DNA of 64,000 bases, taken from contig OZ245817.1 of the NCBI GenBank assembly GCA_965228475.1, forward strand, positions 2,240,001 to 2,304,000, given 5' to 3'. Shown in pieces: positions 9,746-54,703 of this stretch (positions are counted from its first letter, which is position 1; each line of letters opens with the position of its first letter). This stretch comes from Myxococcota bacterium (GTDB lineage Bacteria > Myxococcota_A > UBA9160 > JAFDDA01). Made by a program: the position numbers and the translations under genes. Under the pieces are notes generated by a model, which worked only from the letters and a program-made list of their open reading frames with translations, did no database searches and was not told where the DNA came from.

Positions 9746-9821
9746 TGGAGCGCGAGACCGGGTTCGAACCGGCGACCCTCAGCTTGGGAAGCTGATGCTC
9801 TACCAACTGAGCTACTCGCGC
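9746..9821 (-). tRNA. tRNA-Gly (anticodon CCC)
   Basis: GCGCGAGTAGCTCAGTTGGTAGAGCATCAGCTTCCCAAGCTGAGGGTCGCCGGTTCGAACCCGGTCTCGCGCTCCA: 76 nt, cloverleaf, GGTTCGAA T-loop, encoded CCA. Confidence 0.97.
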
Positions 9822-13856: not shown

Positions 13857-13912
13857 TTCGACTTTCGCTCCTGCAGTGCGTCGATACAGACCGCACGGAA
13901 GTCCTTCGTGTG

Positions 13913-13940
13913 TTTTCGGCCACAACGAAATTGTGATTGA
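13913..13940 (-). promoter_or_regulatory. Sigma28/FliA-like promoter TCAA-N16-GCCGAAAA
   Basis: Resembles the TAAA-N15/16-GCCGATAA consensus. Lies upstream of the GGDEF-EAL gene. The same spacing recurs at five other sites. Confidence 0.6.
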
Positions 13941-14011
13941 GGTCATTTGCGACGGAGTTGGACGGGATCGGCAGGCGGCGTGCAGGGCGCGCGCACCCGA
14001 GCGGCGGAACG

Positions 14012-15124
14012 CTACAAGATGCCGAGGTCCTGCACGTGGCGAAGCATGGCGCGCGCCACGGCCGAGCGGCCGAAGGGGGCGAGGTGTCCGCCGCTGTACC
14101 AATGCAGCGTCGGGCGGCCCCAGTGTTCCCAGAGAGCGTGCGGGTGCTCGGCCGGGACGATCCGGTCGCCGCGACCGGCGACGATCATCACGCGCTCGCG
14201 TTCGGTCCGGAGCGGGTGCGCGAGCGGCGAGTGGAGGCGGTAGTTCCGGCGCAGCTCGTCGTAGTCGAAACTCGGCCGGCCGCGCCGCAGGCTGCGGCCC
14301 TGGAAGCGCCAGGCGAGGTCGCCGATGCAGACGGGCGGGACGAGGGCGATGGCGAAGTCGAGGTCGTCGTAGAGGCCCGCGGAGAGCGCCGTCAGGTAGC
14401 CGCCGAGGGAGAGCCCGAGCACGCCGACGGGGTCGCCCGTGGTCTCGCGGAGCCAGAGCACCGTGCTGCGGATCTCGTGCACCGCGCGGCGGACGCCGTG
14501 GGCGAAATCGATGGCGTTCGGGACCGCGAAGCGCTCGCCCGAGAAGCGTGCTTCGGAGGGGGTGCGTGCGCCGTGCTGGGGAAGCGTCATCAGCGCGACG
14601 TCGAGCCCCGCGGCGAAGAAGTTCGAGGCGAACAGCACGGGCGCGTCGATGCGCGGGTACCCCATCGTGAAGCCGTGGAGCGCGAGCACCGTGCCCCGCC
14701 GGCGCTCGGCGGGATGCTGCCAGTGTTCGAGGCGGATCGCGTCTCCGGGCGGAGGCGGCGATTCCCCTTCGCGCGGCACGTAGGCCGTCGAGAGCTCCCG
14801 GCGGGTGACGCCGCCATCGCCGCGCGCGCCCGCGCTCGAAGCGGCCACGGTCTCGGTCGCGAACGAGTCGGACGAGAACTCGAAGAAGCTCGCGGGGTCG
14901 CCGCGCAGGGCCGGCGTGTCGAGCCGGGCCGCGGCGGCGCGCAGGGCGGGAAGCTCGGCCGGGTCCGGCAGCAGCATGGCATCGATCACGACCTGCATGC
15001 CGGCGAGGATCGCGGCGTCGAGGCCTGCGCCGAGCCAGGTGAAGGCGCCGTCGGCGAAGCCCTCCTCGGGGAGGACCGCCCGGGCCAGCTTCGGAATCGG
15101 TTCGCCCGCTTCGGCCGTCACCAT
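14012..15124 (-). CDS. Alpha/beta hydrolase (ABHD18/DUF2048-like)
   Basis: LHGF, LPQHGAR, nucleophile elbow GLSLGG, GDRIVP, GGH. ATG 15124 follows TTGCGG-N17-CATGCT-6 nt. Confidence 0.85.
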   Translation of the reverse strand: MVTAEAGEPIPKLARAVLPEEGFADGAFTWLGAGLDAAILAGMQVVIDAMLLPDPAELPALRAAAARLDTPALRGDPASFFEFSSDSFATETVAASSAGARGDGGVTRRELSTAYVPREGESPPPPGDAIRLEHWQHPAERRRGTVLALHGFTMGYPRIDAPVLFASNFFAAGLDVALMTLPQHGARTPSEARFSGERFAVPNAIDFAHGVRRAVHEIRSTVLWLRETTGDPVGVLGLSLGGYLTALSAGLYDDLDFAIALVPPVCIGDLAWRFQGRSLRRGRPSFDYDELRRNYRLHSPLAHPLRTERERVMIVAGRGDRIVPAEHPHALWEHWGRPTLHWYSGGHLAPFGRSAVARAMLRHVQDLGIL

Positions 15125-15204
15125 GGACGGAGCATGGGGAGGCTCGCCGCCGCCCGCAAGCTTTCGTCTCCGTCGGGCGTGGGCCCACGCGATAGCATGC
15201 AGCG

Positions 15205-16143
15205 ATGCATCGAATCGAAGAGGTGACGGTCGAGGGCGTCCCGGGCCTGGCCCTGCATTCGCCCGAGGGCCTCTCCGCGACCTTCGTGCCCGGTGCCGGC
15301 ATGATCGGGACGTCCCTTCGCTTCGAGGGTGCGGAGCTGCTGGGGCAGGGCGAGGGCCTCGCGGCCTACCGCACGCGCGGGCGCTGGTTCGGGATCCCGC
15401 TGCTCCACCCCTGGGCCAATCGTCTGCGTCGCAACGGCCTGCGATTCGAGAACGTCGACGTGACGTTCCCCGTCGATGCCCCAGGTCTCCGACGTGATGG
15501 CTCGGGGCTCCCGATCCACGGCCTCGTCTCGGGATGTCCGGACTGGCAGGTCTCCGGGCGGGATGCCGACGGCGCCGGCGCCCGCTTCTCGGCCGCGCTC
15601 GATTTCGGAGCCGACCTCCAACGCCTCTCGCTGTTTCCCTTCCCGCACCGGCTCGAGGTGAGCGTTGCGCTGTGCGGCCAGAGCCTGACGATCGAGACCG
15701 TGCTCGAGGCGAGCGGCGCCCTCCCGGTGCCCGTGGCGTTCGGCTGGCATCCCTACTTCCAGCTCCCGGGGATCCCGCGCGAGATCTGGTCCGTGACGCT
15801 CCCGGTCCGGACGCGCGCCGTGCTCGACGACCGCTGCCTGCCGACGGGCCGGGTCGAGCCGCTGCGCATCCCCCCCGGGCCCCTCGGCGGGAGGACCTAC
15901 GACGACCTCTTCCCCGAGCGGGAGCCCGGCCGGCCCTTCGTGCTCGAGGGCGGGGAGCGCCGCATCGAGGTCGAGTTCGGTGCGGGCTACGAGGTCGCGG
16001 TGGTCTACGCACCCGCGAACGCGGACGTCGTCTGCTTCGAGCCGATGACCGCGCCGACGGACCCCTTCGACGGCGATGGCGCGCTGCGCGTGGCCACGCC
16101 GGACGCGCCGTTCCGTGCGGCCTTCGAGATTCGCGTCCGCTAG
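15205..16143 (+). CDS. Aldose 1-epimerase family protein
   Basis: [34 protein letters not shown]. Confidence 0.9.
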
Positions 16144-19758: not shown

Positions 19759-21195
19759 TCAGCCGAGCGCATGCCAGAGATAGTTCAAGTAGGCCTTGAG
19801 CTTCCATTCGACGGCCTGCCAGTAGGTCTCGCGGGAGATCTCCCCGCGCTCGGCGAGGTCGGCCCACTTCTCGCCCTCGCGCCGGGTGACCTCGAGCTCG
19901 AGGCGGGCGAGCAGCTCCTGGGGCGGGACGCCGAACACCTCCCGGGTCGGCCGCGAGAGTTCGTAGGCGTGGGAGAGCCGGGCGCCCGAGTGCGCGGCGA
20001 AGGCGTAGCTCGGGAAGAAGTGCCAGATCGCGATCGGGATCTCGTCCCAGCCGTCGTCCCACGACCACGGCGGCTTGGGGCGGGACCAGCCCATCTTCGA
20101 GTAGTCGCGGCCGGCGATGTAGCGGCCGATCTCGATCGGGCTTCCGTCCTCCCACGTGCCGAGGCGGATCGATTCCTCGAAGAGCCCGGTGCCGCGTCCT
20201 TCGCTGCCGAAGGGGCCGCGCGCCTGTGAGTACCAGGCGCTGAAGTCGACGAGCTCGTAGGTCGCATCGGTCTGGACGCTGCGGTCCGCGCGGGGTGCGA
20301 CGGGCTCGCGGCGGCCCTGCCAGCGGAGGATCTTCACGTCGCTCGCGAGGGCGTCGAGGTCGAGCCGCTGGAAGGCGCGCACGCCGTGGCCCTGGGGCTG
20401 GCTGTAGACGAGCAGGTGGGCCTCGTTCTCGAAGTGCAGCGCGCCGTGGACGGGTTCGCTTCCGCGGCTCGTCCCGCTGCGGTCGTACAACAGGAACCGG
20501 TTGTGGAACCAGGTCTCCGCCTGCTCGACGCGGCCGCTCGAGCGATCGACACGGATCATCAAGCCCTCGTTGTCGCTGTCGTGATAGCTCCAGTCCGTGA
20601 ACCACTGGCGCAGGGGGTGGTCGTAGTCCTTCGCGTGGTAGAGCGAGTAGGTCAGGTAGAAGGAGTCGGCCGTGACGGCGGTGAGTTCGCCGTACACCGC
20701 GGCGCGGTGGGGCCGATGGCTCGGTTCGTTCTCGACGTTGTCGCGCGGGTCGAGGTTGCCGTCGAAATCGATGCGCACGGGGATGTCCCACTCGGGGTGG
20801 TGCGCGAGCTTCTGCACGATCACCGGCGCGTAGCGTTCGACGAGATGCCGGGCGAGCGCGTCCGGCGACGGGTCCTCGGGCGCGGCGCTCGCCGGCGTCG
20901 GCGGCCCGGGGAGGATCGGCGACGCGCCGGCGGACCCGGCGGCCCAGTCGGACTGGAGGCGATAGTCGGCCTGCTCGCCGATCAGGCTCTCGTTCGCGGT
21001 GATCAGGATCTCGCCGGTCAGCAGGACGGTCAGCGGCAGGCCGACGGCCAGGTAGAGCACCGAGTGCAGCGCCACGATCGCGCTGCGGCCGACGCCGGGC
21101 TCCGGCGCGAAGCGCTCACGCAGCCAGCGCGGGCCGGCGGCGATGGCGTCCCAGATCAGCCACGGAAACAGAACGATGCGCAGCGCGGACTTCAC
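19759..21195 (-). CDS. Membrane-anchored hypothetical protein (~478 aa) with an NPP1/Vps62-like motif pattern
   Basis: GTG 21195. N-terminal TM segment. Then ERYAPVIVQ, AVYG, YLTYSLYH, HDSDNEG, QGHG and KPPWSWD. Family assignment is inference. Confidence 0.7.
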   Translation of the reverse strand: MKSALRIVLFPWLIWDAIAAGPRWLRERFAPEPGVGRSAIVALHSVLYLAVGLPLTVLLTGEILITANESLIGEQADYRLQSDWAAGSAGASPILPGPPTPASAAPEDPSPDALARHLVERYAPVIVQKLAHHPEWDIPVRIDFDGNLDPRDNVENEPSHRPHRAAVYGELTAVTADSFYLTYSLYHAKDYDHPLRQWFTDWSYHDSDNEGLMIRVDRSSGRVEQAETWFHNRFLLYDRSGTSRGSEPVHGALHFENEAHLLVYSQPQGHGVRAFQRLDLDALASDVKILRWQGRREPVAPRADRSVQTDATYELVDFSAWYSQARGPFGSEGRGTGLFEESIRLGTWEDGSPIEIGRYIAGRDYSKMGWSRPKPPWSWDDGWDEIPIAIWHFFPSYAFAAHSGARLSHAYELSRPTREVFGVPPQELLARLELEVTRREGEKWADLAERGEISRETYWQAVEWKLKAYLNYLWHALG

Positions 21196-21236
21196 CCAGG
21201 CCCCCCGTCGCCGTATCGACCCGCGCAGGCACCGAC

Positions 21237-21264
21237 TCAAGGGATTCCCCCACGGATCCGATGA
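21237..21264 (+). promoter_or_regulatory. Sigma28-like promoter TCAA-N16-TCCGATGA
   Basis: Same architecture as the other sites. Lies upstream of the 21326 lipoprotein operon. Confidence 0.45.
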
Positions 21265-21325
21265 GACCGGAGGGGATCTGCACACCCGAGAGGGGGAGCT
21301 GCACGTTCCGGCGAAGGAGGGCTGC

Positions 21326-22483
21326 GTGTCTCGCACCCGAAGGTTCGGAGGGGCCCGACCGAGGACCGTCCGCCCGCGCGGGCCGGCCGCTTGGCTCGGA
21401 TGGTTCTCGTGCGCCCTGGCGCTCCTGGCGCCGGCGTGCGGACGCCCGGAACCCGACCACCCGCGCGGCTTCTTCCTGTTCGCGGAGGGTGCGGCCCTGA
21501 GAGAGCTCCTCGCGGGCTTCGCGGGCCTCGAGGGGACGCCGCTCGGCGAACGTTCGGCGCGTCTGCTCCCCCGGCTCGAAGGCTGCGAATGGGTCGCGGG
21601 GCACGCCGAATCGGGTGGGCTCGAGGCCCTGATCGAGCGACTCGCCTGCGCCTCGGCGGCCGAGGAGCCGAAGGCCGTCGCCAGTCTTCGCGCGGAACGA
21701 AGCGGCGTGTTCCTGGCGCCGGCGTTCCGCATCCGTGGCCAGGTGGCGTCCGGCGCGGTGGCCCTCGACGTATCCCTGCGCGACTCCGAAGACACCGGAG
21801 CCCTGGCCCTGTTCCTGCCGGACGACGACGCGGCAGGTCCCTCCGCGCTCTCGGCGGAGGCGACATTGCTTCACGCCCGGGTGCGCCCGCGCGAAGGGCT
21901 CGATCTCGGCCGCTTCGTCTCCGAGGGAGGCCAGGGTGACCGGCTCTTCCGCTTGAAGAGCGGACTTCTCTCGGACGCCGTGCTCGAGGGCGTCTGGGAA
22001 CTCGCCGCCTACATGCCGGAGGCTGGCGCCGCGCTGCCACCCATGGCCGCCGCGCTCGACGTGCGCAGCGAGGCCGTCGCCCGGGAGGCGATCGAGGGGT
22101 TCGTCGCTGCGCTCTCGGAAGCCTGGCCCATCCACCGGACGCCGGCGCGCTTTTCGGCGGGCGAGGGCGCCTGCTTCTTCGATCTTCGGATCCTTCCCGA
22201 CTTCGCGCCGTGCTACCTGCTTCGCCCCGGGGCGCTCGTGCTCGGCTGGAACCCGGCGAGCCTCGAACGCGCCTTTGCGGGTGCGGGCGACGGCGCGGCC
22301 GCGAGTCGCTTGACGCTGCATCTCGATCGCCTGCCCGAGGCCGACGGCCGGCTCGCCGGCTCGCGCGGCCCGCTGCAGTACGCCTGGGAGAGGCTCGAGA
22401 TCGCTCCCGGCGGCGACGGGGGGGATCTGCGCATCCGTCTCGTCCCACGAAGTCGCTCCGGCCTCGAAGTGGGTGCGCGATGA
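21326..22483 (+). CDS. Hypothetical lipoprotein (~385 aa)
   Basis: GTG 21326 after AAGGAGG. Basic N-terminus and lipobox LAPAC. The stop overlaps the next ATG (ATGA). Confidence 0.7.
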   Translation: MSRTRRFGGARPRTVRPRGPAAWLGWFSCALALLAPACGRPEPDHPRGFFLFAEGAALRELLAGFAGLEGTPLGERSARLLPRLEGCEWVAGHAESGGLEALIERLACASAAEEPKAVASLRAERSGVFLAPAFRIRGQVASGAVALDVSLRDSEDTGALALFLPDDDAAGPSALSAEATLLHARVRPREGLDLGRFVSEGGQGDRLFRLKSGLLSDAVLEGVWELAAYMPEAGAALPPMAAALDVRSEAVAREAIEGFVAALSEAWPIHRTPARFSAGEGACFFDLRILPDFAPCYLLRPGALVLGWNPASLERAFAGAGDGAAASRLTLHLDRLPEADGRLAGSRGPLQYAWERLEIAPGGDGGDLRIRLVPRSRSGLEVGAR

Positions 22484-24816: not shown

Positions 24817-25419
24817 CTAGCGGCGGCGGAGGGCCAGGGGAGCGAGCGCCGCGAGCAGGAGCGCGAGGCTTCCGGGCTCCGGCACCGTCGAGGCGGGGAT
24901 GCCCACGGCGAAGCCGTTGCGGTTGCCGAACTCGAGCGGCTCCGTGGAACCGAGCGCTGCAGCGATCCCGGTCCCGTTCGGCACGTCGCCAGAGCAGTCC
25001 CGTCCCGCGGGGCACTCGATAGGACCGCCGTCCAGAGGGCCTGTCAGGACGTAGACGAAGAAATCGTCGTCGATGCCGTCCGCGATCGGGTTGGTGATGT
25101 CGAAGGCGATCGAGAAGAGATCCGTCGTCAGCGGCCCCGCGATGTTGAGCGACGCCAAGCGGGCGCGATCGTCCCCGGGCGCGCCGAACGGCAGGCCCCC
25201 AGTGTAGAGAAGCGTGGTGGAGTCCAGCGTCAACTCTGTGGGATCCCAGCCGACACTCACGTCGAAGCTCGAGACGGCGACCTCCTGGTCAAGGCCAACG
25301 GTGAAGATGATCTGGTCTCCGACGATCTCCTGATCGAGGGTCAGGTTGACCGTCAGCGCCTGGGCCGAGCCGGCGACGGCGACGGCCGCGAGGGCGCACA
25401 AGAAATGGCTGATCCGCAT
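24817..25419 (-). CDS. PEP-CTERM sorting-domain protein with a cohesin-like beta region
   Basis: Signal peptide ending AQA. SFDVSVGWDPTEL. C-terminus VPEPGSLALLLAALAPLALRRR. GGAGGAG RBS. Confidence 0.88.
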   Translation of the reverse strand: MRISHFLCALAAVAVAGSAQALTVNLTLDQEIVGDQIIFTVGLDQEVAVSSFDVSVGWDPTELTLDSTTLLYTGGLPFGAPGDDRARLASLNIAGPLTTDLFSIAFDITNPIADGIDDDFFVYVLTGPLDGGPIECPAGRDCSGDVPNGTGIAAALGSTEPLEFGNRNGFAVGIPASTVPEPGSLALLLAALAPLALRRR

Positions 25420-25642: not shown

Positions 25643-26542
25643 CTAGGAGGCGGCCTTCTTCCGGCGGGGCTTCTTGGAGCCCTTCGCGGCCTCCGGCTCG
25701 ACCTTGGCCATCTTGCGCTTGGGCCGGGCCTTGGCGGCCGTCTTCTTCGCGGCCGGCTTGGCCGGGCTCCGCTTGTCCGAGAGGCTCTTCTTGAGGGCCG
25801 CCACGAGGTCGATGATCTGCTCGCGCTCCTGCTGGGGCGCGGCGGCGACGACCTCCTCGCCGGCGACCTTGCGCTCGACCGCGGCGAGCACGGCCTGGCG
25901 GTAGCCGTCCTCGTAGCCCTCGGGCTCGAACTTCTTGCTGGCGAGCTGCCCGATCAGCTGCTCCGCGAGCTTGCGCTCGCCGTCCTTCAGCTTCACCGGA
26001 TCGCCGAACTCGATGTCGTCGAAGCTCGCGACCTCGTCGGCGTAGTGGAGGCCCTGGAGGACGAGGCCGTTGCCGAGGGGCCGGATCAGGACGAGCTGGT
26101 CCTTGCCGCGCGTGGCGAAGCGGCCGACGGCGACCTGGCCCGTCTTCTTCATCGCCTCACACAGGAGCGTGTAGGCCTTCTGGCCGCCCTTGTCGGGGCC
26201 GAGCAGGTTCGCCTTCTCGTAGTAGAGCGGGTCGACCTGCTCGATCGGTACGAACTCCTCGATCTCGATGGTGCGGTCGCTCTTGGCCTCGAGGGCCTTC
26301 AGCTCCTCGTCCGTGAAGACCACGAACTGGTCGCGGGCGTACTCGTAGCCCTTCACCATGTCGCTGCGTTCGACCTTCTCGCCGGTGGCGGCGGAGACGT
26401 ACTGCTGCTTCACCCGGCCGTGCTTCTTCGGCTCGAGCATCTTGAAGTGGACGGACTTCGAGCGGCTCGCGGTGTAGAGCTTCACCGGGATCGAGACGAG
26501 GCCGAACGAGATGGTTCCGGAGGCGATCGCGCGGGCAGGCAT
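25643..26542 (-). CDS. ku: NHEJ DNA end-binding protein Ku
   Basis: GTISFGLVSIPVKLY, VKGYEY, IEIEEFVP, YTLLCEAM, IDLVAALKKSL and a Lys/Ala-rich tail. Confidence 0.96.
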   Translation of the reverse strand: MPARAIASGTISFGLVSIPVKLYTASRSKSVHFKMLEPKKHGRVKQQYVSAATGEKVERSDMVKGYEYARDQFVVFTDEELKALEAKSDRTIEIEEFVPIEQVDPLYYEKANLLGPDKGGQKAYTLLCEAMKKTGQVAVGRFATRGKDQLVLIRPLGNGLVLQGLHYADEVASFDDIEFGDPVKLKDGERKLAEQLIGQLASKKFEPEGYEDGYRQAVLAAVERKVAGEEVVAAAPQQEREQIIDLVAALKKSLSDKRSPAKPAAKKTAAKARPKRKMAKVEPEAAKGSKKPRRKKAAS

Positions 26543-26601
26543 GTGGAAGAATCCCTGGGGGGAGGCTCTGGAAGCTGGAGGATAGAACGTCGTACCATAC
26601 C

Positions 26602-26629
26602 GGTTCGGCACGCGGCGGCTCAAGCGTTA
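26602..26629 (-). promoter_or_regulatory. Weaker sigma28-like promoter TAAC-N16-GCCGAACC upstream of ku
   Basis: Same spacing as the other sites but a poorer match. Confidence 0.3.
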
Positions 26630-26687
26630 AGGGTCGCAGCACCGGACCCCAAGGGCCCGGAACGCCACGGGAGGCTCCGAGGCCAGA

Positions 26688-29237
26688 TTGCGCGACCTCA
26701 AGCGGTACCGTCTCAAACGAGACCCGGAGGCCACGCCCGAGCCCTTCGGTGACGAGCGCCCCGGGAGGGCAATTCCCCCCGGCGGCGCCCGGCGCTTCGT
26801 CGTCCAGCAGCACGCGGCCCGGAACCTCCACTGGGATCTCCGGCTCGAGATCGCCGGCGTGCTGGTGAGCTTCGCCGTCCCGCGCGGGCCGTCCCTCGAC
26901 CCCGGCGAGCGCCGCCTGGCCGTGCAGACGGAAGACCACCCGCTCGAGTACGCGGACTTCGAGGGCGTGATCCCCGAAGGCAACTACGGCGCCGGGGCGA
27001 TGATCGTCTGGGACGAGGGCATCTATCGGAGCGCCGACGGCAAGGACCCCGCCCGCCAGCTCGAAGACGGCAAGCTCGATCTCGAGCTGCGCGGCCACAA
27101 GCTGCGCGGGCGCTTCGCGCTCGTGCGCACGCGGGGCGAGCCCGCGGGACGGAGCTGGCTCCTGCTGCACAAGACACGCGCGGCCTTCGAACCGCCGGAC
27201 GTGATCGATGCGGCGCCCGCGTCGGTGCTCTCCGGGCTCACGGTGGAAGAGCTGGCCGCCGGCGTGACGCGCGAGGACGCGCTGCGCGAGCGGCTCGCCG
27301 AGGCCGGTGCGAAGCGCGGACGCGTCGATGCGGCGGCCCTCCGCCCGATGCTGGCCTCGACGGGGGAGGGCGCCTTCTCGGACGCGGCCTGGCGCTTCGA
27401 GCTGAAGTACGACGGCGTGCGCATCCTCGCGGCGCGCGAGGGCGGCGGCGAGGTCGTGCTGCGGACGCGTGCGGGCCGGGACCGGACGGCCGTGTACCCG
27501 GAGGTCGCGGCAGCCCTCGCGCACCTCCCCGCGAGCGACTTCGTGCTCGACGGCGAGATCGTCACCCTCGACGCGGCGGGCCGGAGCTCCTTCGAGCGGC
27601 TCCAGCGGCGCTTCACCCAGCGCGACCCGGAGCGGATCGCCCGCGAGCGCCTCGAGGCGCCGGCCGTCTACGCGGTCTTCGACCTCCCGGCGCTGCTCGG
27701 GCACGACCTGCGCGCCCTTCCGCTCGACGCGCGCAAGGCCGTGCTCGCCGAGCTCGTCCCGCGCCAGGGCGTCGCGCACTTCGTCGATCACGTCGAAGGG
27801 GAAGGGGAGGCGCTCTTCGAAGCGGCGGAGGCCCACGGCCTCGAAGGCGTCGTCGCGAAGCGCGGCGACTCGCGCTACGAGGACGGCCGCCGCTCGCCGC
27901 GCTGGAAGAAGCTCAAGGTGCCCCGCACGGCGACGCTCGCCGTGGTCGGGTTCACGGAGGGCCAGGGTTCGCGCAAGCCGCTCGGCTCGCTGGCGTTGGC
28001 GTGGCACCGGGAAGGGCGCTTCGTCTATGCCGGCCAGGTCGGCTCGGGCTTCTCGGCCGAGGCGGTGGACGCCCTGCGCGAGGCGCTCGAGCGGCAGCGC
28101 ATCGAGGCGGCCCCTTGCGAGGACGTGCCCGAAGATCTGCCGCACGAGGTGTTCTGGGTCGACCCCGAGGCGTGCTGCGAGGTCCGCTTCACCGAGGTCA
28201 CGGGCGCCGGACACCTGCGGCACCCGGTCTTCCTCGGGTTGCGCGAGGAGGTCGCGCCCGGCGATTGCGTGGCACCGTCTTCATCCGAGACTTCCAGCGT
28301 GGAGCGCGAGCCGCTCGGAAACGAGGGGCCGCCTCCCAAGCTGCCCGAGCGCGGCTTCGTCCCCTCCCGCCTCGACAAGATCTTCTGGCCTGTCGATGGC
28401 TACACCAAGGGCGACCTGCTCGCCTACTACGAGGCCGTCTGGCCGTGGCTCGCGCGCTACCTCGAGGACCGGCCCCTCGTCCTGGTGCGGCACCCCGACG
28501 GGATCGACGGGAAGCACTTCTATCAGAAGAACGCGCCGGACTTCACGCCGGCCTGGGCGACGCGCCGGAACATCGAAGGCACGGACTACTTCATCTGCAA
28601 CGATCTCGACACGCTGCGCTACGTGGTGAACTCCGGCGCGATCTCCCTGCACGTCTGGCACAGCCGCGCGGCGGACCTCGAACGGCCGGACTGGCTCGTG
28701 CTCGACCTCGACCCCAAGGAGGCACCCTTCGCGGACGTGGTCGAGGTCGCCCGTCACGTCCACCGCCTGCTCGAGGGCTGCGGAGCGCCCCACGGCGTGA
28801 AGACCTCCGGGCAGGATGGCCTCCACGTCCTGCTGCCGCTCGGCGGCCAGCTCGACCACGAAGAATCGCGCCGGCTGGCCGAAGTGCTCGCGCGCGTGGT
28901 CGCGGCGGAGATGCCCGAGAAGACGACGCTCGTGCGCCCCGTGGCGCGCCGCGCCGACAAGGTCTATCTCGACTACCTGCAGAACGGACGCGGCAAGCTG
29001 ATCGCGGCGCCGTTCGCCGTCCGCCCGCGCGCGGGCGCGCCGGTCTCGACGCCGCTGTCCTGGAGTCAGGTGACCGCCCGCCTCGACCCGGGCCGCTGGA
29101 ACCTCCGGACCACGCCCCGGCAGATGGAGAAGAAGGGAGACCCGATGGCCGACCTGCTCTCGCAGGAACTCGACGTCGAAGCCCTGCTCACGGCGCTCGC
29201 CGAACGCCTCGCCTCCGCCGGGGAGGTGCAGGAATGA
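26688..29237 (+). CDS. ligD: DNA ligase D (phosphoesterase-ligase-polymerase)
   Basis: Phosphoesterase FVVQQHAARNLHWDLRLE and EDHPLEY. Ligase ELKYDG and EGVVAK. Polymerase TKGDL, DLDP, KTSG and DYLQN. Confidence 0.96.
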   Translation: MRDLKRYRLKRDPEATPEPFGDERPGRAIPPGGARRFVVQQHAARNLHWDLRLEIAGVLVSFAVPRGPSLDPGERRLAVQTEDHPLEYADFEGVIPEGNYGAGAMIVWDEGIYRSADGKDPARQLEDGKLDLELRGHKLRGRFALVRTRGEPAGRSWLLLHKTRAAFEPPDVIDAAPASVLSGLTVEELAAGVTREDALRERLAEAGAKRGRVDAAALRPMLASTGEGAFSDAAWRFELKYDGVRILAAREGGGEVVLRTRAGRDRTAVYPEVAAALAHLPASDFVLDGEIVTLDAAGRSSFERLQRRFTQRDPERIARERLEAPAVYAVFDLPALLGHDLRALPLDARKAVLAELVPRQGVAHFVDHVEGEGEALFEAAEAHGLEGVVAKRGDSRYEDGRRSPRWKKLKVPRTATLAVVGFTEGQGSRKPLGSLALAWHREGRFVYAGQVGSGFSAEAVDALREALERQRIEAAPCEDVPEDLPHEVFWVDPEACCEVRFTEVTGAGHLRHPVFLGLREEVAPGDCVAPSSSETSSVEREPLGNEGPPPKLPERGFVPSRLDKIFWPVDGYTKGDLLAYYEAVWPWLARYLEDRPLVLVRHPDGIDGKHFYQKNAPDFTPAWATRRNIEGTDYFICNDLDTLRYVVNSGAISLHVWHSRAADLERPDWLVLDLDPKEAPFADVVEVARHVHRLLEGCGAPHGVKTSGQDGLHVLLPLGGQLDHEESRRLAEVLARVVAAEMPEKTTLVRPVARRADKVYLDYLQNGRGKLIAAPFAVRPRAGAPVSTPLSWSQVTARLDPGRWNLRTTPRQMEKKGDPMADLLSQELDVEALLTALAERLASAGEVQE

Positions 29238-30003: not shown

Positions 30004-30561
30004 ATGGCCCAGAACCCTGCGGCGCATTGGGTGTTCGGATACGGCTCCCTCGTCTTCCGCCCGGACTTCCCCCATGAGGAGGCCCGCGCTGCCCGTCTGC
30101 GGGGCTACGCGCGGCGCTTCTGGCAGGGCTCGACGGACCACCGCGGCGTCCCGGAAGCGCCGGGGCGGGTGGTCACGCTCTCGCCCGAGCCGGAGGCCGT
30201 GTGCCACGGCGTGGCCTTCCGCGTCGCGCCCGCGGCGTGGCCGGAGGTGGTCGCGAAGCTCGACCACCGCGAAAGCGGCGGCTACGAGCAGCGTGAGGTG
30301 GAACTCGAGCTCGTCGAGGCAGGGCCCGCGAGGATCTCGGCCCTCGTCTACTACGCGGCGCCGGGAAACCCGAACTACCTCGGCGACGCGCCGCTCGTCG
30401 AGATTGCCCGGCAGGTCCACGGGGCCCGCGGGCCGAGTGGCGCGAACCTCGAATACGTGCTGCGCCTGGCCGAGCATCTGCGGTCGCTCGGCGTGGCGTC
30501 GGATCCCGTCTTCGATCTGGAGAGGGCGCTGGCGGAACTCCCGCGGGCCCGGGGCGCCTAG
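30004..30561 (+). CDS. chaC: ChaC-family gamma-glutamylcyclotransferase
   Basis: WVFGYGSL, RRFWQGSTDHRG, PGRVVTL, LDHRE, GPSGANLEY. Confidence 0.92.
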   Translation: MAQNPAAHWVFGYGSLVFRPDFPHEEARAARLRGYARRFWQGSTDHRGVPEAPGRVVTLSPEPEAVCHGVAFRVAPAAWPEVVAKLDHRESGGYEQREVELELVEAGPARISALVYYAAPGNPNYLGDAPLVEIARQVHGARGPSGANLEYVLRLAEHLRSLGVASDPVFDLERALAELPRARGA

Positions 30562-31250
30562 GCGGTCGGCGGCGCGCTCGGTGCGGCCGGAGCGCCGGGC
30601 TCGTCGTCCTCGGGCGCGACGAGCCCCGCGGACATCACGAGCTTGAAGGCCTCTTCGACGGTCAGGTCGATGTCGTGGACCTCCTGCTCCGGGACGAGCA
30701 GGTAGAAGCCCGAGGTTGGGTTCGGCGTCGTCGGCACGAAGCAGTTGATCATCTTGTCGGGCGTGATGTCCTGGACGATGCCGCGGGCCTCACCGGTGGT
30801 GAAGGCCAGGGCCCAGAGGCCCTTGCGCGGGTACTCGATCAGGATCACCCGGTTGAAGCGCGAGCCGGTGTCGCTCTGGAAGATCGCCTCCATGAGCTGC
30901 CGCACGGCGCCGTAGATGCTGCCCGCGATCGGGATGTCGTCGATCAGGTTGGCCCAGCGCCGGGTGATCTCGAAGGGCACGAGGTGCCGTGCGATCACGC
31001 CGAGCAGCAGGATCACGACCAGCGTGAAGAGCACCCCGACGAGCGGCAGGTTCGGCGGGTCGGTGACGCCGAGCCAGCCGAGCACCGTCGGCAGGAACAT
31101 GCGGTCGAGGCGGCCGATGATCCAGAAGATCGCCCAGAGGGTGATCCCGATCGGCGCGAAGAACAGGATGCCGGCTACGAAGTAGCGGCGGAAGATGCCC
31201 CGCAAGGCGGCCATCCAGCGGGCGAGCCGCGTCTTGTCGGGCTCGGGCAC
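30558..31250 (-). CDS. DUF502 membrane protein
   Basis: YFVAGIL, IPIAGSIYG, IEYPRKG, FVPTTPNPTSGF, VEEAFKLVMSAG. AGGAG RBS. Confidence 0.92.
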   Translation of the reverse strand: MPEPDKTRLARWMAALRGIFRRYFVAGILFFAPIGITLWAIFWIIGRLDRMFLPTVLGWLGVTDPPNLPLVGVLFTLVVILLLGVIARHLVPFEITRRWANLIDDIPIAGSIYGAVRQLMEAIFQSDTGSRFNRVILIEYPRKGLWALAFTTGEARGIVQDITPDKMINCFVPTTPNPTSGFYLLVPEQEVHDIDLTVEEAFKLVMSAGLVAPEDDEPGAPAAPSAPPTA

Positions 31251-31261
31251 GAGCGGTGCTC

Positions 31262-31411
31262 CTAGAAGAGCGGGTCGTCGCCGTCGGGCGCGTAGGCCGT
31301 GATCTCGCAGTCGAGGCCGATCACCTCGAAGCGGGGCGGCTCGTAGGCCTGGGTCGCTTCCGGGTTGCTCGTGGTGGCCGAAGCCGCCGGGTCGCGGGGA
31401 TCGTTTCGCAT
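31262..31411 (-). CDS. PqqA-like precursor peptide (49 aa)
   Basis: Below the track cutoff. MRNDPRDPAASATTSNPEATQAYEPPRFEVIGLDCEITAYAPDGDDPLF*. Has an aromatic-x-x-P leader motif and an ExxxY core, with GC-rich third positions in the conserved half. Confidence 0.75.
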   Translation of the reverse strand: MRNDPRDPAASATTSNPEATQAYEPPRFEVIGLDCEITAYAPDGDDPLF

Positions 31412-31417
31412 GGGACG

Positions 31418-31426
31418 GTTATAGCA
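31418..31426 (-). promoter_or_regulatory. Extended -10 element TGcTATAAC, 6 nt before the peptide ATG (leaderless promoter)
   Basis: Minus strand reads gTGcTATAACcgtcccATG. No Shine-Dalgarno sequence. Confidence 0.6.
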
Positions 31427-31483
31427 CGGCACGGATGCGGGCCGCCCGGCTGCGGGTGCCAGCGGGAGGGTGCAGGGGTGGCG

Positions 31484-32623
31484 TCAGCGCGCGCCCATCG
31501 GCCGCATTCCGAGGCGCGCGTGCTCGATGGCTTCGAGGAGGCCCTGGCGCGTGATCGCGCCCACGATCATCGAGCCGTCCATGATGGGGATCTGGTTCGT
31601 GCGGTGCTGGGAGAAGAGGTGCAGGACGTCGACGGCGGCGAGGTCCGGAGAGGCGAGGATCACGCGGTCCATGGGGGTCGTGATCGAGCCGACCGGGGTC
31701 TGGGCCCAGCGCGAGCGCGGCACCGCGTCCAGGTCGGCGCGCGAGACCAGACCGACGGGCCGGCCATGGTCGAGCACCACCGCCCATCGCTCGCCGCGCA
31801 GGACGTGATCGTCGGCGAAGGCGGCCACGGTCAGGCTGCCTTCGACGGTGGGCACACGCGGCGTCATGAGGTCGCGCGCGACGATCCCGCGCAGCTCGAT
31901 CTCGAGCCCGGCCCGCCGCCGGTGGTCGATGGAGGCCGTCAGCACGAACCAGCCGATGAAGGCGAACCACAGGCCCTGCACCGGCGCTCGGAAGGCCACG
32001 ACCGCCCCGATCGCGATGAGGCCGTAGGCGATCCACTGGCCGACCCGGGCGGCGATGCCCGTCGCCTGGGAGGGGTCGCGCCCGTTGGCCCAGAGCAGGG
32101 CCCGCAGCACGCGGCCGCCGTCGAGCGGGTAGCCCGGCAGCAGGTTGAACAGGGCGACGCCGACGTTCAGGAGGGCCAGGGACTCGAAGGTCGACTCGCC
32201 GACCGATCCCGGCGGGAAGAGGAAGGTGAGCGCCGCGAACAGCGCGCCGATCGCGCCGCTCACCGCCGGGCCGGCGGCGGCGATCTGGAACTCCGAGCGG
32301 GGGGAGATCGCCGGGTTCTCCATCCACGCGACGCCGCCGAAGACGAACAGCACGATCGAGCGCACACGCACGCCGTGGCGCAGGGCCACGACGCTGTGAC
32401 CGATCTCGTGCATCAAGATGGAGCCGAAGACGAGCCCGGCGGTGATGGCGGAGAAGGCGCCGCGCCAGAAGATCGACAGCCCGGGCTGGGTCGCGGCCAG
32501 CTGGCTCCAGAGGCCGAAGACGACCAGCACGAAGACCACGAACCAGGTCGGATGCAGGTGGATCGGAATCCCGAGCACGCGCCCGATGCGAAGGCCCGGC
32601 TCGATGTCGGAGCGCCCGGCCAC
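31484..32623 (-). CDS. Site-2 protease (M50) with a CBS pair
   Basis: HEIGH, AAAGP, FNLLPGYPLDGG, then ARDLMT and two CBS repeats. GTG 32623. Confidence 0.93.
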   Translation of the reverse strand: MAGRSDIEPGLRIGRVLGIPIHLHPTWFVVFVLVVFGLWSQLAATQPGLSIFWRGAFSAITAGLVFGSILMHEIGHSVVALRHGVRVRSIVLFVFGGVAWMENPAISPRSEFQIAAAGPAVSGAIGALFAALTFLFPPGSVGESTFESLALLNVGVALFNLLPGYPLDGGRVLRALLWANGRDPSQATGIAARVGQWIAYGLIAIGAVVAFRAPVQGLWFAFIGWFVLTASIDHRRRAGLEIELRGIVARDLMTPRVPTVEGSLTVAAFADDHVLRGERWAVVLDHGRPVGLVSRADLDAVPRSRWAQTPVGSITTPMDRVILASPDLAAVDVLHLFSQHRTNQIPIMDGSMIVGAITRQGLLEAIEHARLGMRPMGAR

Positions 32624-32628
32624 GGGCG

Positions 32629-33678
32629 CTAGCGCAGCAAGACGTCGCAGGCGAACCGGATGCGGCGCACCAGGCGGCCGAGCGCGTTGTGGTGGATGTT
32701 CCGGCGCAGCCGGACGAGCAGGCGCCGTTCGAGCGCGTAGCGCGTGAGCTTCTTCTTGCGGGCGGGGCGCGGGTCGATGCCGTCGAGATCCGCAGCGAGG
32801 GCGGCGCGCGAGTAGCCCCAGGTCTCGAGGTCTTCGTCCGTGGCGCGCTCGAGCGCGGCGCGGGCGGCGGCGAGCTTCTCGGGGCTCTCGGCCAGGGCGC
32901 CGGTCCACTTGTCGAGGGAGTCCGTGGTCGGGCGGCCGGCCTGGGCGGCCTGGACCGGGTCGCCGAGCCCGCGCGCGGCCGCGGCCTGGCCCGCCTGGCC
33001 GTAATCGACGAGGGCCGGTTCGTAGGGCAGGCCGAGGTGGTCGGCGATCGCCCGCGCGTGCTTCTCGGGATCGGCGACGAGCGCCTCGTAGCGCACGTGC
33101 ACGAGCTCGACGGGCCGCTCGCGCAGGAAGCGCGCGATGGCCGGGACGTAGCGGTCGACGAGCGGGGCCTGCCGCTCGGCGGCCTCGTGGTCGCCGTCGA
33201 AGAAGGACTCGACCTGGGAGGACCACGCCGCGAGCGGATTGCGCGTGATCACGACGTAGTGCGCGTCTGGATAGAGCTTCGCGAGGAAGTCGAGCACGAG
33301 GGCGTAGGCCGGCGTCTTGTCGAGCAGGTGGGTCTTGCCGCTCGGGGCGAGGAGCTTCCCGTAGAGCATGTCCGTGTGCGCGCGCAGGGATTCGAGGTAG
33401 TCGGCCTCGCCGCCGGGCAGGCTCGCCACGAGCTCGCGCAGGCCGAGCTGGGTGATGATCGGATCGTAGGGTGCGGCGTCGACCTTCTCGAAGTAGCCGA
33501 GGTGGGCGAGGCCGGTCATCAGGTGGGCCTCGGCGGGAGCGTGGATCCGGCTGTGGGCGCCGAGCATCCGGGCGAGCATGGTCGTCCCCGAGCGCGGGGA
33601 GCCGATCAGGAAGATCAGCCGGCGCTGGTTCGCGGCCTCGCCGCCCTCGCTTTCATGGGACTGCGTCCGATCCTGCAA
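32629..33678 (-). CDS. PAPS-dependent sulfotransferase
   Basis: 5'PSB motif GSPRSGTTML, DKTP, 3'PB motif RNPLAAWSS, VRYEALV. Confidence 0.92.
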   Translation of the reverse strand: MQDRTQSHESEGGEAANQRRLIFLIGSPRSGTTMLARMLGAHSRIHAPAEAHLMTGLAHLGYFEKVDAAPYDPIITQLGLRELVASLPGGEADYLESLRAHTDMLYGKLLAPSGKTHLLDKTPAYALVLDFLAKLYPDAHYVVITRNPLAAWSSQVESFFDGDHEAAERQAPLVDRYVPAIARFLRERPVELVHVRYEALVADPEKHARAIADHLGLPYEPALVDYGQAGQAAAARGLGDPVQAAQAGRPTTDSLDKWTGALAESPEKLAAARAALERATDEDLETWGYSRAALAADLDGIDPRPARKKKLTRYALERRLLVRLRRNIHHNALGRLVRRIRFACDVLLR

Positions 33679-35921: not shown

Positions 35922-36725
35922 CTAGAGCGTGTCGCGGTGGCGGATCAAGACCTCGCGCGCGCGCCGCGCCTGGGCCGCGGAGACGGCCTGGGAAACGCGC
36001 TGGGCCAGCCAGGGCTTCGCGGAGCAGAGGTACTCGAAGGCCGAGCGGTCGATCTCGAGCAGGCGACAGTCCGTGGCCGCGATGGCGGTTTCGCTCGGCG
36101 CGAGCCCGGTGAGGAGCGGCGTGCCGCCGAACAGCCGGCCCGGTCCGAGGCGCTCGAAGCTCACGTTGCGGGCGCCCCGCACGCGCGCCTCGAGGACCAC
36201 TTCGCCTTCCGAGACGAGGAAGATCGACTCTTCGCCCGCGTCCATCACGTCCTCGCGGTGGATGGTCGCGCCGCGTTGGACGTCGCGATAGCGCGTCACC
36301 TGGGCCAGGCCCATGGCCTCCTCGATGTCGAGCGACGAGAGATCGGAGCGCGCGTGGAGGAAACGGCCGAGCTGCTTGGCGCCTTCGAGCACCTGATCCC
36401 AGAGGGCTTCGACGAGCGCTTCGGTCGGCCGGACGAAGGAGATGCCCGTCAGCACGACCATGTCGCCCGGGGTGCTGCGCTGCCAGCGGCCTTCGGCTTC
36501 GAGCTCGAGGGGCCGTCCGGGAAGGTTCAGGGTCACGCGGTGGATCGACTTGAACTCGAAGGGCGAGGCGGTCGCCACGCACATGCCGCCGATGCCGAGG
36601 TCCCGGGCGCGGCCCGGAAGCTGGCCCGAGATCCCGCCCGCGTGGATGTCCACGGGGAAGTCGGTCCCCACGCGGGGGTTCTGGCGGACCTCGATCGCGC
36701 TCCGGCGTCTCGCGGGCTTCTGCAT
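35922..36725 (-). CDS. PilZ plus cyclic-nucleotide-binding-like domain fusion (267 aa)
   Basis: RQNPR...DLGIGG...GISF (PilZ), then IFLVSEGEV...LGPGRLFG...AIAATDCRLLEIDR (cNMP fold). Confidence 0.85.
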   Translation of the reverse strand: MQKPARRRSAIEVRQNPRVGTDFPVDIHAGGISGQLPGRARDLGIGGMCVATASPFEFKSIHRVTLNLPGRPLELEAEGRWQRSTPGDMVVLTGISFVRPTEALVEALWDQVLEGAKQLGRFLHARSDLSSLDIEEAMGLAQVTRYRDVQRGATIHREDVMDAGEESIFLVSEGEVVLEARVRGARNVSFERLGPGRLFGGTPLLTGLAPSETAIAATDCRLLEIDRSAFEYLCSAKPWLAQRVSQAVSAAQARRAREVLIRHRDTL

Positions 36726-36732
36726 GACTGGT

Positions 36733-36760
36733 TCTTCGGCATCATGGGGCCCGGCCTGCA
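36733..36760 (-). promoter_or_regulatory. Sigma28-like promoter TGCA-N16-GCCGAAGA, 7 nt before the ATG
   Basis: Directly upstream of the PilZ gene. Good -10, weaker -35. Confidence 0.45.
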
Positions 36761-36863
36761 TCGGGCGATGGCCCCGGCGCGCGGTCGGGGGTTGCCGCGC
36801 CGCCGGGTGGGAAACCCCGAGAGGAGCGTCGGTGGATCGTCGGCACGGGGGGAGGGCGTTCGG

Positions 36864-40384: not shown

Positions 40385-40735
40385 ATGGAACGAAAGACGA
40401 AGCGGCGGGGCCTCGCCCTGGCCGCAGCGATGGCTTGTTGCGTCGCGCTGGCGCCCGCGCCGGCCCACGCCGAAAACGACACGGCGACCAACGCGGCCGC
40501 CGCGTTCTGTTCGCTGCTCTATGCGCCGACGAAGATCGCCTTCGCGGGCCTCGGGACGGTCGTGAGCGGTCTGGCCTGGGCCATGACCGGCTTCGACGGC
40601 GAGGCGGCCCGGCCGATCTTCTACTCGACGGTGCGAGGGGACTACCTGATCACGCCGAACCATCTCGAGGGCCGCCGGCCGGTCGAGTTCGTCGGGCGCG
40701 ATCCCCGGGACGAGCCGCCGCGCGAAGCCTGGTAG
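40385..40735 (+). CDS. Small exported/membrane hypothetical protein
   Basis: Signal peptide ending AHA, hydrophobic core, then RGDYLITP. Codon usage fits the host. Confidence 0.7.
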   Translation: MERKTKRRGLALAAAMACCVALAPAPAHAENDTATNAAAAFCSLLYAPTKIAFAGLGTVVSGLAWAMTGFDGEAARPIFYSTVRGDYLITPNHLEGRRPVEFVGRDPRDEPPREAW

Positions 40736-42495: not shown

Positions 42496-43143
42496 ATGGG
42501 AGAGGCGAAGGCCCAGGGCCACCTGTTGGACGAGGTGCGCGAGCGCTTCGAGCGGAGCTACGAGGCCGGGGAGACCGTCTTCGGGCCCGGCGAGCCTGCG
42601 CGCTCGCTCTTCGTGGTCCAGACCGGCGAAGTCGAGATCCTGCGCCCGACCGGCAGCGGCACCCGCTCGGTCGATCGCATCCGGCCCGGCGAGTTCTTCG
42701 GGGAGATGGCCGTGGTGCTCGGCGGACGCCACAGCGTCCGGGCCGTGGCCTCGAGCGGGACCCGGCTGCTCGAGATCGACCGCGAGACCTTCCACGACAT
42801 GTGCCTGGACCGGCCCGAGATCGCCCTGCGCGTGATCCAGCGGCTGACGGCCCGCGTCCTCCAGCTCGAAGACCGCATCGGCACGCTGGCCGTGACCGAG
42901 CTGATTCGCCCGGTCGTCGCCCACCTGCTCGAGGGCGCCGTGCTCGAGGGGGAGGAGCACCGGGTCGAAACGAGTCTGCGGGAGATCGCCGAGGCCTCGG
43001 GGCTCTCCATGCTCGACGCGCACCGGGCGATCCAGGAACTCCTCGATCAGAAGCTCCTCCGGCTCGACCAGGACCTCCTGTTCATCGCCGACCGCGACGC
43101 CCTGGCGCGCTTCCCGAACGAAGTCGCCGCCCCCACGGCCTGA
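42496..43143 (+). CDS. Crp/Fnr-family regulator
   Basis: cNMP domain GEFFGEMA and C-terminal HTH SLREIAEASGLS. Confidence 0.85.
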   Translation: MGEAKAQGHLLDEVRERFERSYEAGETVFGPGEPARSLFVVQTGEVEILRPTGSGTRSVDRIRPGEFFGEMAVVLGGRHSVRAVASSGTRLLEIDRETFHDMCLDRPEIALRVIQRLTARVLQLEDRIGTLAVTELIRPVVAHLLEGAVLEGEEHRVETSLREIAEASGLSMLDAHRAIQELLDQKLLRLDQDLLFIADRDALARFPNEVAAPTA

Positions 43144-54525: not shown

Positions 54526-54551
54526 GGGAGCGGCAGGGCCTCCTCCCCCCA

Positions 54552-54579
54552 GAATCGGCAGGCCATCGGACCCTCTTGA
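54552..54579 (-). promoter_or_regulatory. Sigma28-like promoter TCAA-N16-GCCGATTC
   Basis: Near-consensus match just upstream of the RBS of the diguanylate cyclase. Confidence 0.6.
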
Positions 54580-54703
54580 GGGGAAGTCACCCCGAGAGCA
54601 GCGAATTCGGGCTCCTGGGTGGGCCGCGGAGGCCCGGCGGAAGGCCACCGGGCCCGGAGGCGGATAAACCCTTGTCAGCACACCGGAATCGTCCGAAGGG
54701 GGG

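Follow-up and report, generated by a model that had tools for sequence, protein, structure and literature searches.

The stretch of 64,000 nucleotides (nt) analysed here, hereafter the window, comprises positions 2,240,001 to 2,304,000 of contig OZ245817.1 from a Myxococcota bacterium (assembly GCA_965228475.1). Its minus strand contains a 49-codon open reading frame (ORF) at 31411..31262 whose translation resembles PqqA, the precursor peptide of pyrroloquinoline quinone (PQQ). The locus raises the question of whether so short an ORF is a gene and, if it is, what kind of precursor such a peptide may be when it lies apart from other pqq genes. An earlier reading of the sequence (the original prediction) left two alternatives, a remote and separately regulated pqqA copy or the substrate of a different pathway, for a cofactor or for peptides of the ribosomally synthesised, post-translationally modified kind (RiPPs). 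The first of these is favoured here since the peptide is a homologue of operon-linked PqqA, and with a probability of roughly 0.7 we consider the ORF to be a dispersed, divergent and N-terminally extended member of the PqqA family.

A conserved small gene

The ORF extends from the ATG at 31411-31409 to a TAG stop at 31264-31262, and re-reading of the minus strand returned precisely the 49-codon ORF and the translation given in the original prediction. The gene and the parts of its product are as follows.

31262..31411, minus strand: predicted pqqA-type precursor peptide gene, 49 codons and a TAG stop, so assigned from its homologues, its codon pattern and its kinship with PqqA
31346..31408, minus strand: variable polar N-terminal extension, residues 2-22, unconserved in sequence and length in the protein alignment A1 and absent from Sinorhizobium PqqA
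31325..31345, minus strand: leader Tyr23-Glu-Pro-Pro26-Arg-Phe28-Glu29, of the form aromatic-x-x-Pro-x-Phe, with P26, F28 and E29 invariant in A1
31292..31309, minus strand: Cys35-Glu36-Ile-Thr-Ala-Tyr40, invariant in A1, in which Glu36 and Tyr40 correspond to the pair of PqqA that is cross-linked by PqqE
31265..31291, minus strand: acidic tail Ala-Pro-Asp-Gly-Asp-Asp-Pro-Leu-Phe, conserved across the family

Besides the entry of the window itself, a word-indexed search returned 24 homologues of 40-68 amino acids (aa) with E values of 4e-13 to 5e-5. Their sources are mostly metagenomes, and one is named 'hypothetical protein [Myxococcales bacterium]'. Where family members carry a source name at all (P0002 and the JGI-sourced members) it is 'hypothetical protein', and most are nameless. 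In A1 the N-terminal two fifths vary freely in both sequence and length, and 16 residues are invariant (P26, F28, E29, L33, D34, C35, E36, I37, T38, A39, Y40, D43, D45, P47, L48 and F49). Searching 1.84 billion cluster representatives with a profile enlarged the family to 109 clusters at E <= 1e-3, 40 of them at E <= 1e-10, the clusters being defined at 50% identity and all members being 31-120 aa long. The Glu-x-x-x-Tyr anchor is carried by 107 of the 109 cluster representatives, and the following counts refer to these 107, with positions given relative to the Glu as 0.

Aromatic residue at -13: 100/107 representatives
Pro at -10: 106/107 representatives
Leu at -3: 105/107 representatives
Cys at -1: 105/107 representatives
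Tail beginning Ala-Pro-Asp: 85/107 representatives
C-terminal end Pro-Leu-Phe: 89/107 representatives

The extension ahead of the motif measures 13-40 residues, with a median of 22 in these representatives. The original prediction had proposed that YxxP and ExxxY should be looked for among relatives, and ExxxY and a leader of aromatic-x-x-Pro type are kept across the family at the frequencies listed.

The pattern of nucleotide change was followed in 25 DNA copies, namely the window and 24 related loci, the latter all from metagenome-assembled genomes that are variously labelled and of the Myxococcota type. In the stretch encoding LDCEITAYAPD, third positions have a minor-allele fraction of 0.196, and positions 1 and 2 one of 0.004. 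It must be noted that the 24 loci were fetched by the pattern LDCEITAY, by which their invariance over these eight residues is given by construction; the synonymous change is not. The G+C content of the ORF at the three codon positions, 0.65/0.53/0.89 in a window of 71% G+C, is likewise a coding-type base pattern. The gene was absent from the ORF track available to the earlier reader, yet it is present among the calls of a protein-prediction pipeline as a 56-aa database entry (P0001) begun farther upstream, at a GTG (31432). The relatives speak for the ATG at 31411, and not this GTG, as the start.

Spurious ORFs are common in GC-rich genomes, and on the opposite strand a 458-codon ORF spans the same DNA, as might be expected if the peptide ORF were a chance open frame or if the site were a conserved non-coding element. 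Against such a reading stand the conservation at the amino-acid level combined with synonymous change, the 109 homologue clusters and the start context kept among the loci, and no Rfam family matches the site of the ORF. The likelihood of a chance or non-coding origin is on these grounds practically negligible, and as judged by sequence comparison the peptide ORF is a real, conserved and protein-coding small gene.

A few longer members of the family have unusual N-termini. The 65-aa P0110 matches ribosomal protein S21 over its first approximately 40 residues (TIGR00030, E 5e-19) and ends in the PqqA-like block, the junction coinciding with Tyr-Glu-Lys-Pro of the S21-like part. This member could be a natural fusion or a chimera of assembly or gene calling. 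The N-terminal starts of the other long members P0056, P0060 and P0074 are pieces of unrelated families.

Relationship to PqqA

When the peptide was compared by tblastn with 7.3 Gb of plasmid sequence, 50 records were matched, all of them Sinorhizobium and all at one and the same locus. The match covers residues 6-49 at 40.8% identity; with an E value of about 1, it carries weight by its place and not by its score. Of the 30 rows listed, 10 have an annotated pqqA (pyrroloquinoline quinone precursor peptide PqqA) at the match, and the remaining rows show no entry there in an incomplete gene table. In CP073680.1, the pSymB of Sinorhizobium meliloti (here L025, with pqqA at 6058-6153), annotated pqqC, pqqD and pqqE follow just downstream of pqqA.

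Compared directly by BLASTP, the Sinorhizobium PqqA (31 aa) and the window peptide are identical at 13 of 30 positions (E 1e-7). Between the aromatic residue and the Tyr the alignment is gapless, with W3/P6/F8/E16/Y20 of Sinorhizobium falling on Y23/P26/F28/E36/Y40 of the window peptide. Both peptides have an aromatic residue with a Pro three positions later and a Phe two further, a Glu ten residues after the Pro, and a Tyr four residues after the Glu with Ile-Thr between. In both, the tail consists of Ala-Pro, acidic and Gly residues, Pro and a terminal Leu-Phe, and the acidic tail, which the original prediction had regarded as odd, is accordingly of the same type as in an operon-linked PqqA. 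The features by which a PqqA may be recognised are in this way present in the window peptide: Glu and Tyr four residues apart (E36/Y40), an aromatic residue followed at +3 by Pro and at +5 by a hydrophobic residue (Y23, P26, F28), the Pro lying ten residues before the Glu, and a detectable kinship with an operon-located PqqA.

The two also differ. Sinorhizobium PqqA has no N-terminal extension and begins two residues before the aromatic, the residue before its Glu is Met where the window peptide has Cys, and its gene, unlike that of the window, has a Shine-Dalgarno site and sits in a pqq cluster. Between pqqA and pqqC of S. meliloti ABS7, where pqqB would be expected, L025 6153-7104 is without an entry in the gene table; a PqqB-like reading frame in this interval shifts partway. 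The interval may represent a pseudogene, a sequencing error or an incomplete gene table.

Profile comparisons corroborate the kinship. On TIGR02107 (cut-off 20) Sinorhizobium PqqA scores 43.5 bits, whereas the window peptide obtains no score; on the profile built from A1 the same Sinorhizobium peptide scores 23.9 bits, whereas 2000 shuffles of its own sequence reach 7.2 at best. In reverse tblastn with Sinorhizobium PqqA as query, the best match in the window is the peptide ORF (31348-31265, E 0.011), and at 24 of the 24 loci the best match is again the peptide ORF, at E values from 4e-6 to 4.6. TIGR02107 is matched at E <= 10 by 29 of the 110 family members, the next commonest family by 5. 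The distant members P0121, P0122 and P0126, from the far end of the profile matches, reach 21.1, 22.7 and 25.6 bits on PF08042 (cut-off 21.1), and scores of 24.3 and 27.4 bits on TIGR02107 are found among them; these are the 3 that pass a curated cut-off out of 18 members scanned one by one. One of the three is called PqqA by its source, and P0121 and P0126 are family-like in having Cys before the Glu. Most close relatives, like the window peptide, fall below the HMMER filters. In the ESM Atlas a PqqA cluster was found at rank 5 (score 0.79), and this is no more than a lead.

Relative to the PqqA family as modelled by TIGR02107 and PF08042, the leader and the E-x-x-x-Y are in a common register, and the branch to which the window peptide belongs is the longer one (49 aa for the window peptide, and a median of 22 residues preceding the motif). 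The closest known relative is PqqA, the Sinorhizobium type being nearest, and as far as these alignments reach the peptide is homologous to PqqA, though overlooked by the PqqA models. The claim of the original prediction that the ORF is both real and PqqA-like is sustained by the homologues, the third-position variation and this kinship. A search of the PDB with the family profile gave nothing but affinity-tag look-alikes (Trp-Ser-His-Pro-Gln-Phe-Glu) at E 0.6-5, which are meaningless and were discarded.

A probable promoter element of the leaderless type

Upstream of the ATG there is one further element.

31418..31426, minus strand: extended -10-like promoter element TGCTATAAC, 6 nt ahead of the ATG

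The pattern TGNTATAA occurs once in the 64 kb, both strands included, namely in this element, versus 0.05 occurrences expected, and at least one match was obtained in 5 of 100 shuffles. In 23 of the 25 loci, the window included, the ATG is preceded at 6-8 nt by the end of a TA-hexamer with 3-5 matches to TATAAT; TGn stands before this hexamer in 19, while the DNA farther upstream and the surrounding intergenic DNA differ between loci. The exceptions are L020 and L022, in which purine-rich Shine-Dalgarno-like stretches replace the -10 element. A scan of 30400-32000 with a two-hexamer promoter consensus and a terminator consensus found nothing; the two-hexamer scan is blind to the present element since this has no -35 partner.

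That the -10-like element is preserved in 23 of 25 loci speaks for a leaderless mRNA. Its position and conservation fit an extended -10 promoter with the start of transcription at or next to the ATG, and the features expected of a separately promoted leaderless gene, a -10 element 6-8 nt before the start and no Shine-Dalgarno site, are found together here. The putative leaderless promoter described in the original prediction is in this respect a conserved feature.

Maturation genes and the probable pathway

According to PMC10906245, PqqE joins Glu16 to Tyr20 of PqqA while PqqD holds the N-terminal part of the peptide. Transcription of the window gene would proceed from the extended -10 promoter and start at the ATG, and, if the gene is a pqqA, the leader Tyr23-x-x-Pro26-x-Phe28 would dock on a PqqD-type RiPP recognition element (RRE). 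A PqqE-type radical S-adenosylmethionine (SAM) enzyme would then link Glu36 to Tyr40, after which the linked pair would be excised by peptidases and PqqB and PqqC would complete PQQ. All these enzymes would be encoded elsewhere in the genome, and a separate and strong promoter would allow the substrate, which is consumed, to be supplied independently of the enzymes.

Dispersed pqqA genes have precedents. PMC11317620 describes orphan pqqA copies in methylotrophs, pqqA2 and pqqA3 in Methylorubrum extorquens AM1 and five copies in Methylovorus sp. MP688, and these orphans sit apart from pqqBCDE and are separately regulated. Because such copies are known from that source, adjacency to pqqB, pqqC, pqqD or pqqE, usual for the family and found neither in the window nor at the 24 loci, is not obligatory. 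The methylotroph orphans are extras beside an operon-linked pqqA, whereas no operon is known for the window gene.

Several observations weigh against the assignment to PqqA. The original prediction had suggested scoring the peptide with models of PqqA, and by this test it failed, since neither the whole peptide nor residues 21-49 matched PF08042 or TIGR02107 at E <= 10; the curated PqqA cut-off that it thereby misses is an operational rule and not a biological feature. Pfam scans of the 49 window ORFs contained no match to pqqB-E, PqqD, radical SAM or RRE families. Within 10 kb of the 24 related loci, the scanned flank ORFs contained no radical SAM, SPASM, PqqB, PqqC or PqqD. The flanks comprise 312 ORFs of at least 80 aa, of which 148 match window proteins and 164 have no counterpart there; the latter form 99 clusters, and Pfam was run on representatives of 76, the 23 others being short or marginal or lying at contig ends. 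When Sinorhizobium PqqC, PqqD and PqqE served as queries in a six-frame tblastn, nothing was obtained below E 0.5 in the window or below 0.1 in the window and loci together. The statement in the original prediction that no maturation genes are recognisable in the window holds for the window ORFs, and none appeared in the scanned flank ORFs of the 24 loci. To these points must be added the poor E value of the plasmid match and the retrieval bias in the invariance of LDCEITAY, both noted above. Finally, a near-invariant Cys (105/107), a conserved tail and an extension of 13-40 residues are unexplained by the textbook PQQ pathway, which uses only the Glu and Tyr of PqqA.

It may be asked whether the peptide is instead a PqqA-like precursor for a different RiPP or cofactor pathway, modified by an RRE-dependent enzyme other than PqqE that perhaps uses Cys35, with the tail kept in the product. 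The frequencies of Cys at -1 and of the tail (APD in 85/107, PLF in 89/107) would agree with this, as would the silence of the curated PqqA models on the window peptide and the fact that the gene never adjoins pqq genes in the window or the 24 loci. The same type of tail, however, is found in the PqqA of a pqqA-C-D-E cluster that scores 43.5 bits on TIGR02107, P0121 and P0126 pass PqqA cut-offs with a Cys before the Glu, and no alternative enzyme was seen near any of the loci. Since some sequences accepted by the PqqA models have both the Cys and the tail as well, these features are by themselves no argument for another pathway, and we regard such a pathway as unlikely. Slightly less probable is a more specific proposition that concerns carrier genomes without pqqBCDE. 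Here a PqqA-derived precursor would have been taken over in a Myxococcota-type lineage by an unlinked and unrecognised maturation system that uses Cys-Glu...Tyr, keeps the Pro-Leu-Phe tail and gives a product other than PQQ.

Short aromatic-x-x-Pro leaders bound by PqqD-like domains are also characteristic of other RRE-dependent RiPPs, such as lasso peptides and the mycofactocin precursor MftA. The window peptide shares such a leader, but no cognate enzymes are found near it in the scanned ORFs of the window and loci. It ends in Pro-Leu-Phe where MftA has a C-terminal Gly-Val-Tyr, and it is without the ring-acceptor pattern of lasso cores. Lasso leaders have the pattern Y-x-x-P ... T-x, and lasso cores run to some 13 residues or more, an Asp or Glu being conserved at position 7-9. 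The leader spacing of the window peptide fits this motif if a short core begins at Tyr40, and 1 of the 110 family members weakly matches a lasso precursor model (E 0.007, 16 bits, cut-off 27). The putative core would, however, be just 10 residues long, its position 7 varies in A1 (D, E, F, Q, G, T, L, R) with no conserved ring acceptor at 7-9, neither a lasso cyclase nor a leader peptidase family appears in the window or locus scans, and the PqqA signal is much commoner in the family (29/110). A lasso-type precursor is on this evidence highly improbable.

Two further candidates for a connection with PQQ were considered among the related loci. L020 is a short contig with the label Gemmatimonadota, in which a PQQ-type beta-propeller gene (PF01011, E 1e-26) begins on the same strand 60 nt after the peptide gene (295-2488 for the pair) and is cut by the contig end. 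This was not counted as evidence for PQQ, since the protein scores 70.5 bits where true PQQ dehydrogenases have a cut-off of 480. A 657-aa ORF of the metallo-beta-lactamase fold near L015 was rejected as a PqqB, having no similarity with the pqqB region of Sinorhizobium.

Implications

What is new here is modest: a sizeable branch of PqqA, N-terminally extended and missed by the models, that stands alone behind a conserved promoter of the leaderless type. No mention of the family motif strings CEITAY, CEISAY and YAPDGD, or of PqqA in Myxococcota, was found in the literature searches made. The models used for annotation of PqqA miss a whole branch of at least 109 clusters at 50% identity. Because of this, surveys that score PQQ synthesis by pqqA would under-call these bacteria, and the same applies to RiPP mining that expects a precursor beside its enzymes. 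The conserved leaderless promoter may also serve as a simple example of a cofactor precursor supplied by its own transcription unit. Were the pqq enzymes absent from the genome, the finding would be much more interesting; if they are present, the gene is an ordinary dispersed pqqA.

Neighbouring genes

Directly downstream of the peptide gene lies a gene for a membrane protein.

30558..31250, minus strand: DUF502 membrane protein gene (PF04367, E 1.5e-28), with a GTG start at 31250

An AGGAG at 31263-31259 serves the DUF502 gene and overlaps the stop of the peptide gene. The original prediction had the two genes co-transcribed, which is plausible in the window, where the gap from stop to start is 11 nt and a terminator-like site is absent; the arrangement is not a conserved link, and DUF502 here probably rides on the peptide transcript by accident of position. 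Upstream on the same strand are genes for a site-2 protease (M50/CBS), a sulfotransferase, a family-1 glycoside hydrolase and Lgt. When the synteny of the region was compared across the 24 related loci, as the original prediction had advised, the region as a whole proved syntenic, while the immediate neighbours come and go around a peptide gene that stays.

Glycoside hydrolase: 20/24 loci
Sulfotransferase: 16/24 loci
Site-2 protease: 8/24 loci
DUF502 directly downstream: 13/24 loci

Loci that lack DUF502 have as their next gene an opposite-strand NnrU or CvpA, or another gene, and L019, L020 and L021 have wholly different gene contexts. A variable cassette occupies the interval from the family-1 glycoside hydrolase to the peptide gene (31484-33678) when the window is compared with L001-L024; relatives have there a sulfotransferase with the M50/CBS protease, a sulfotransferase alone, or neither.

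The site-2 protease, the sulfotransferase and DUF502 had been named in the original prediction as candidate partners, and a small protein working with its neighbours, acted on by the protease or regulating it, targeted by the sulfotransferase, or paired with DUF502, is indeed suggested by the four genes on one strand, the 11-nt gap and a gene order common to several relatives. The counts above speak against this, since all three neighbours vary and the peptide gene is constant, and so do the loci at which NnrU or CvpA lies on the opposite strand or the context is different altogether. The peptide moreover keeps its own promoter element, and by direct reading it is acidic and polar with neither a signal peptide nor a membrane segment. 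A function in concert with the neighbours is very unlikely; to judge from the comparison of loci, the peptide gene is a free-standing unit and the neighbours are not conserved partners.

Other features of the window

The remaining ORFs of the window are, in the Pfam scans, housekeeping genes with nothing of a PQQ or RiPP kind, and three coding-type ORFs of 545, 678 and 200 aa (1-1637, 19759-21795 and 24817-25419) match no Pfam family at E <= 1e-3. Genes of cyclic-nucleotide signalling are dense (3824-6253, 11049-15302, 35922-36800, 42496-43143 and 53197-54681). The set comprises an adenylate/guanylate cyclase, a 1417-aa protein with seven transmembrane segments and PAS, GGDEF and EAL domains, a protein that combines PilZ with cyclic-nucleotide (cNMP) binding, a further cNMP-binding protein, and a HAMP-GGDEF protein.

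At 40385-40735 a 116-aa ORF has a weak match to TrbC/VirB2 pilin (E 8e-7, just above the cut-off). It adjoins genes of DsbD and thioredoxin type, and the window contains no other type IV secretion genes. A minus-strand Ku gene (PF02735, E 1.5e-50) stands at 25643-29237 back to back with a gene for a full three-domain LigD (plus strand) with phosphoesterase, ligase and primase-polymerase domains; Ku and LigD are the bacterial pair for non-homologous end joining. The sole RNA gene in the window is a tRNA-Gly(CCC) at 9746-9821 on the minus strand, which overlaps the 5' end of a crude call for a MarC-family ORF and thereby indicates that the true MarC start lies farther in.

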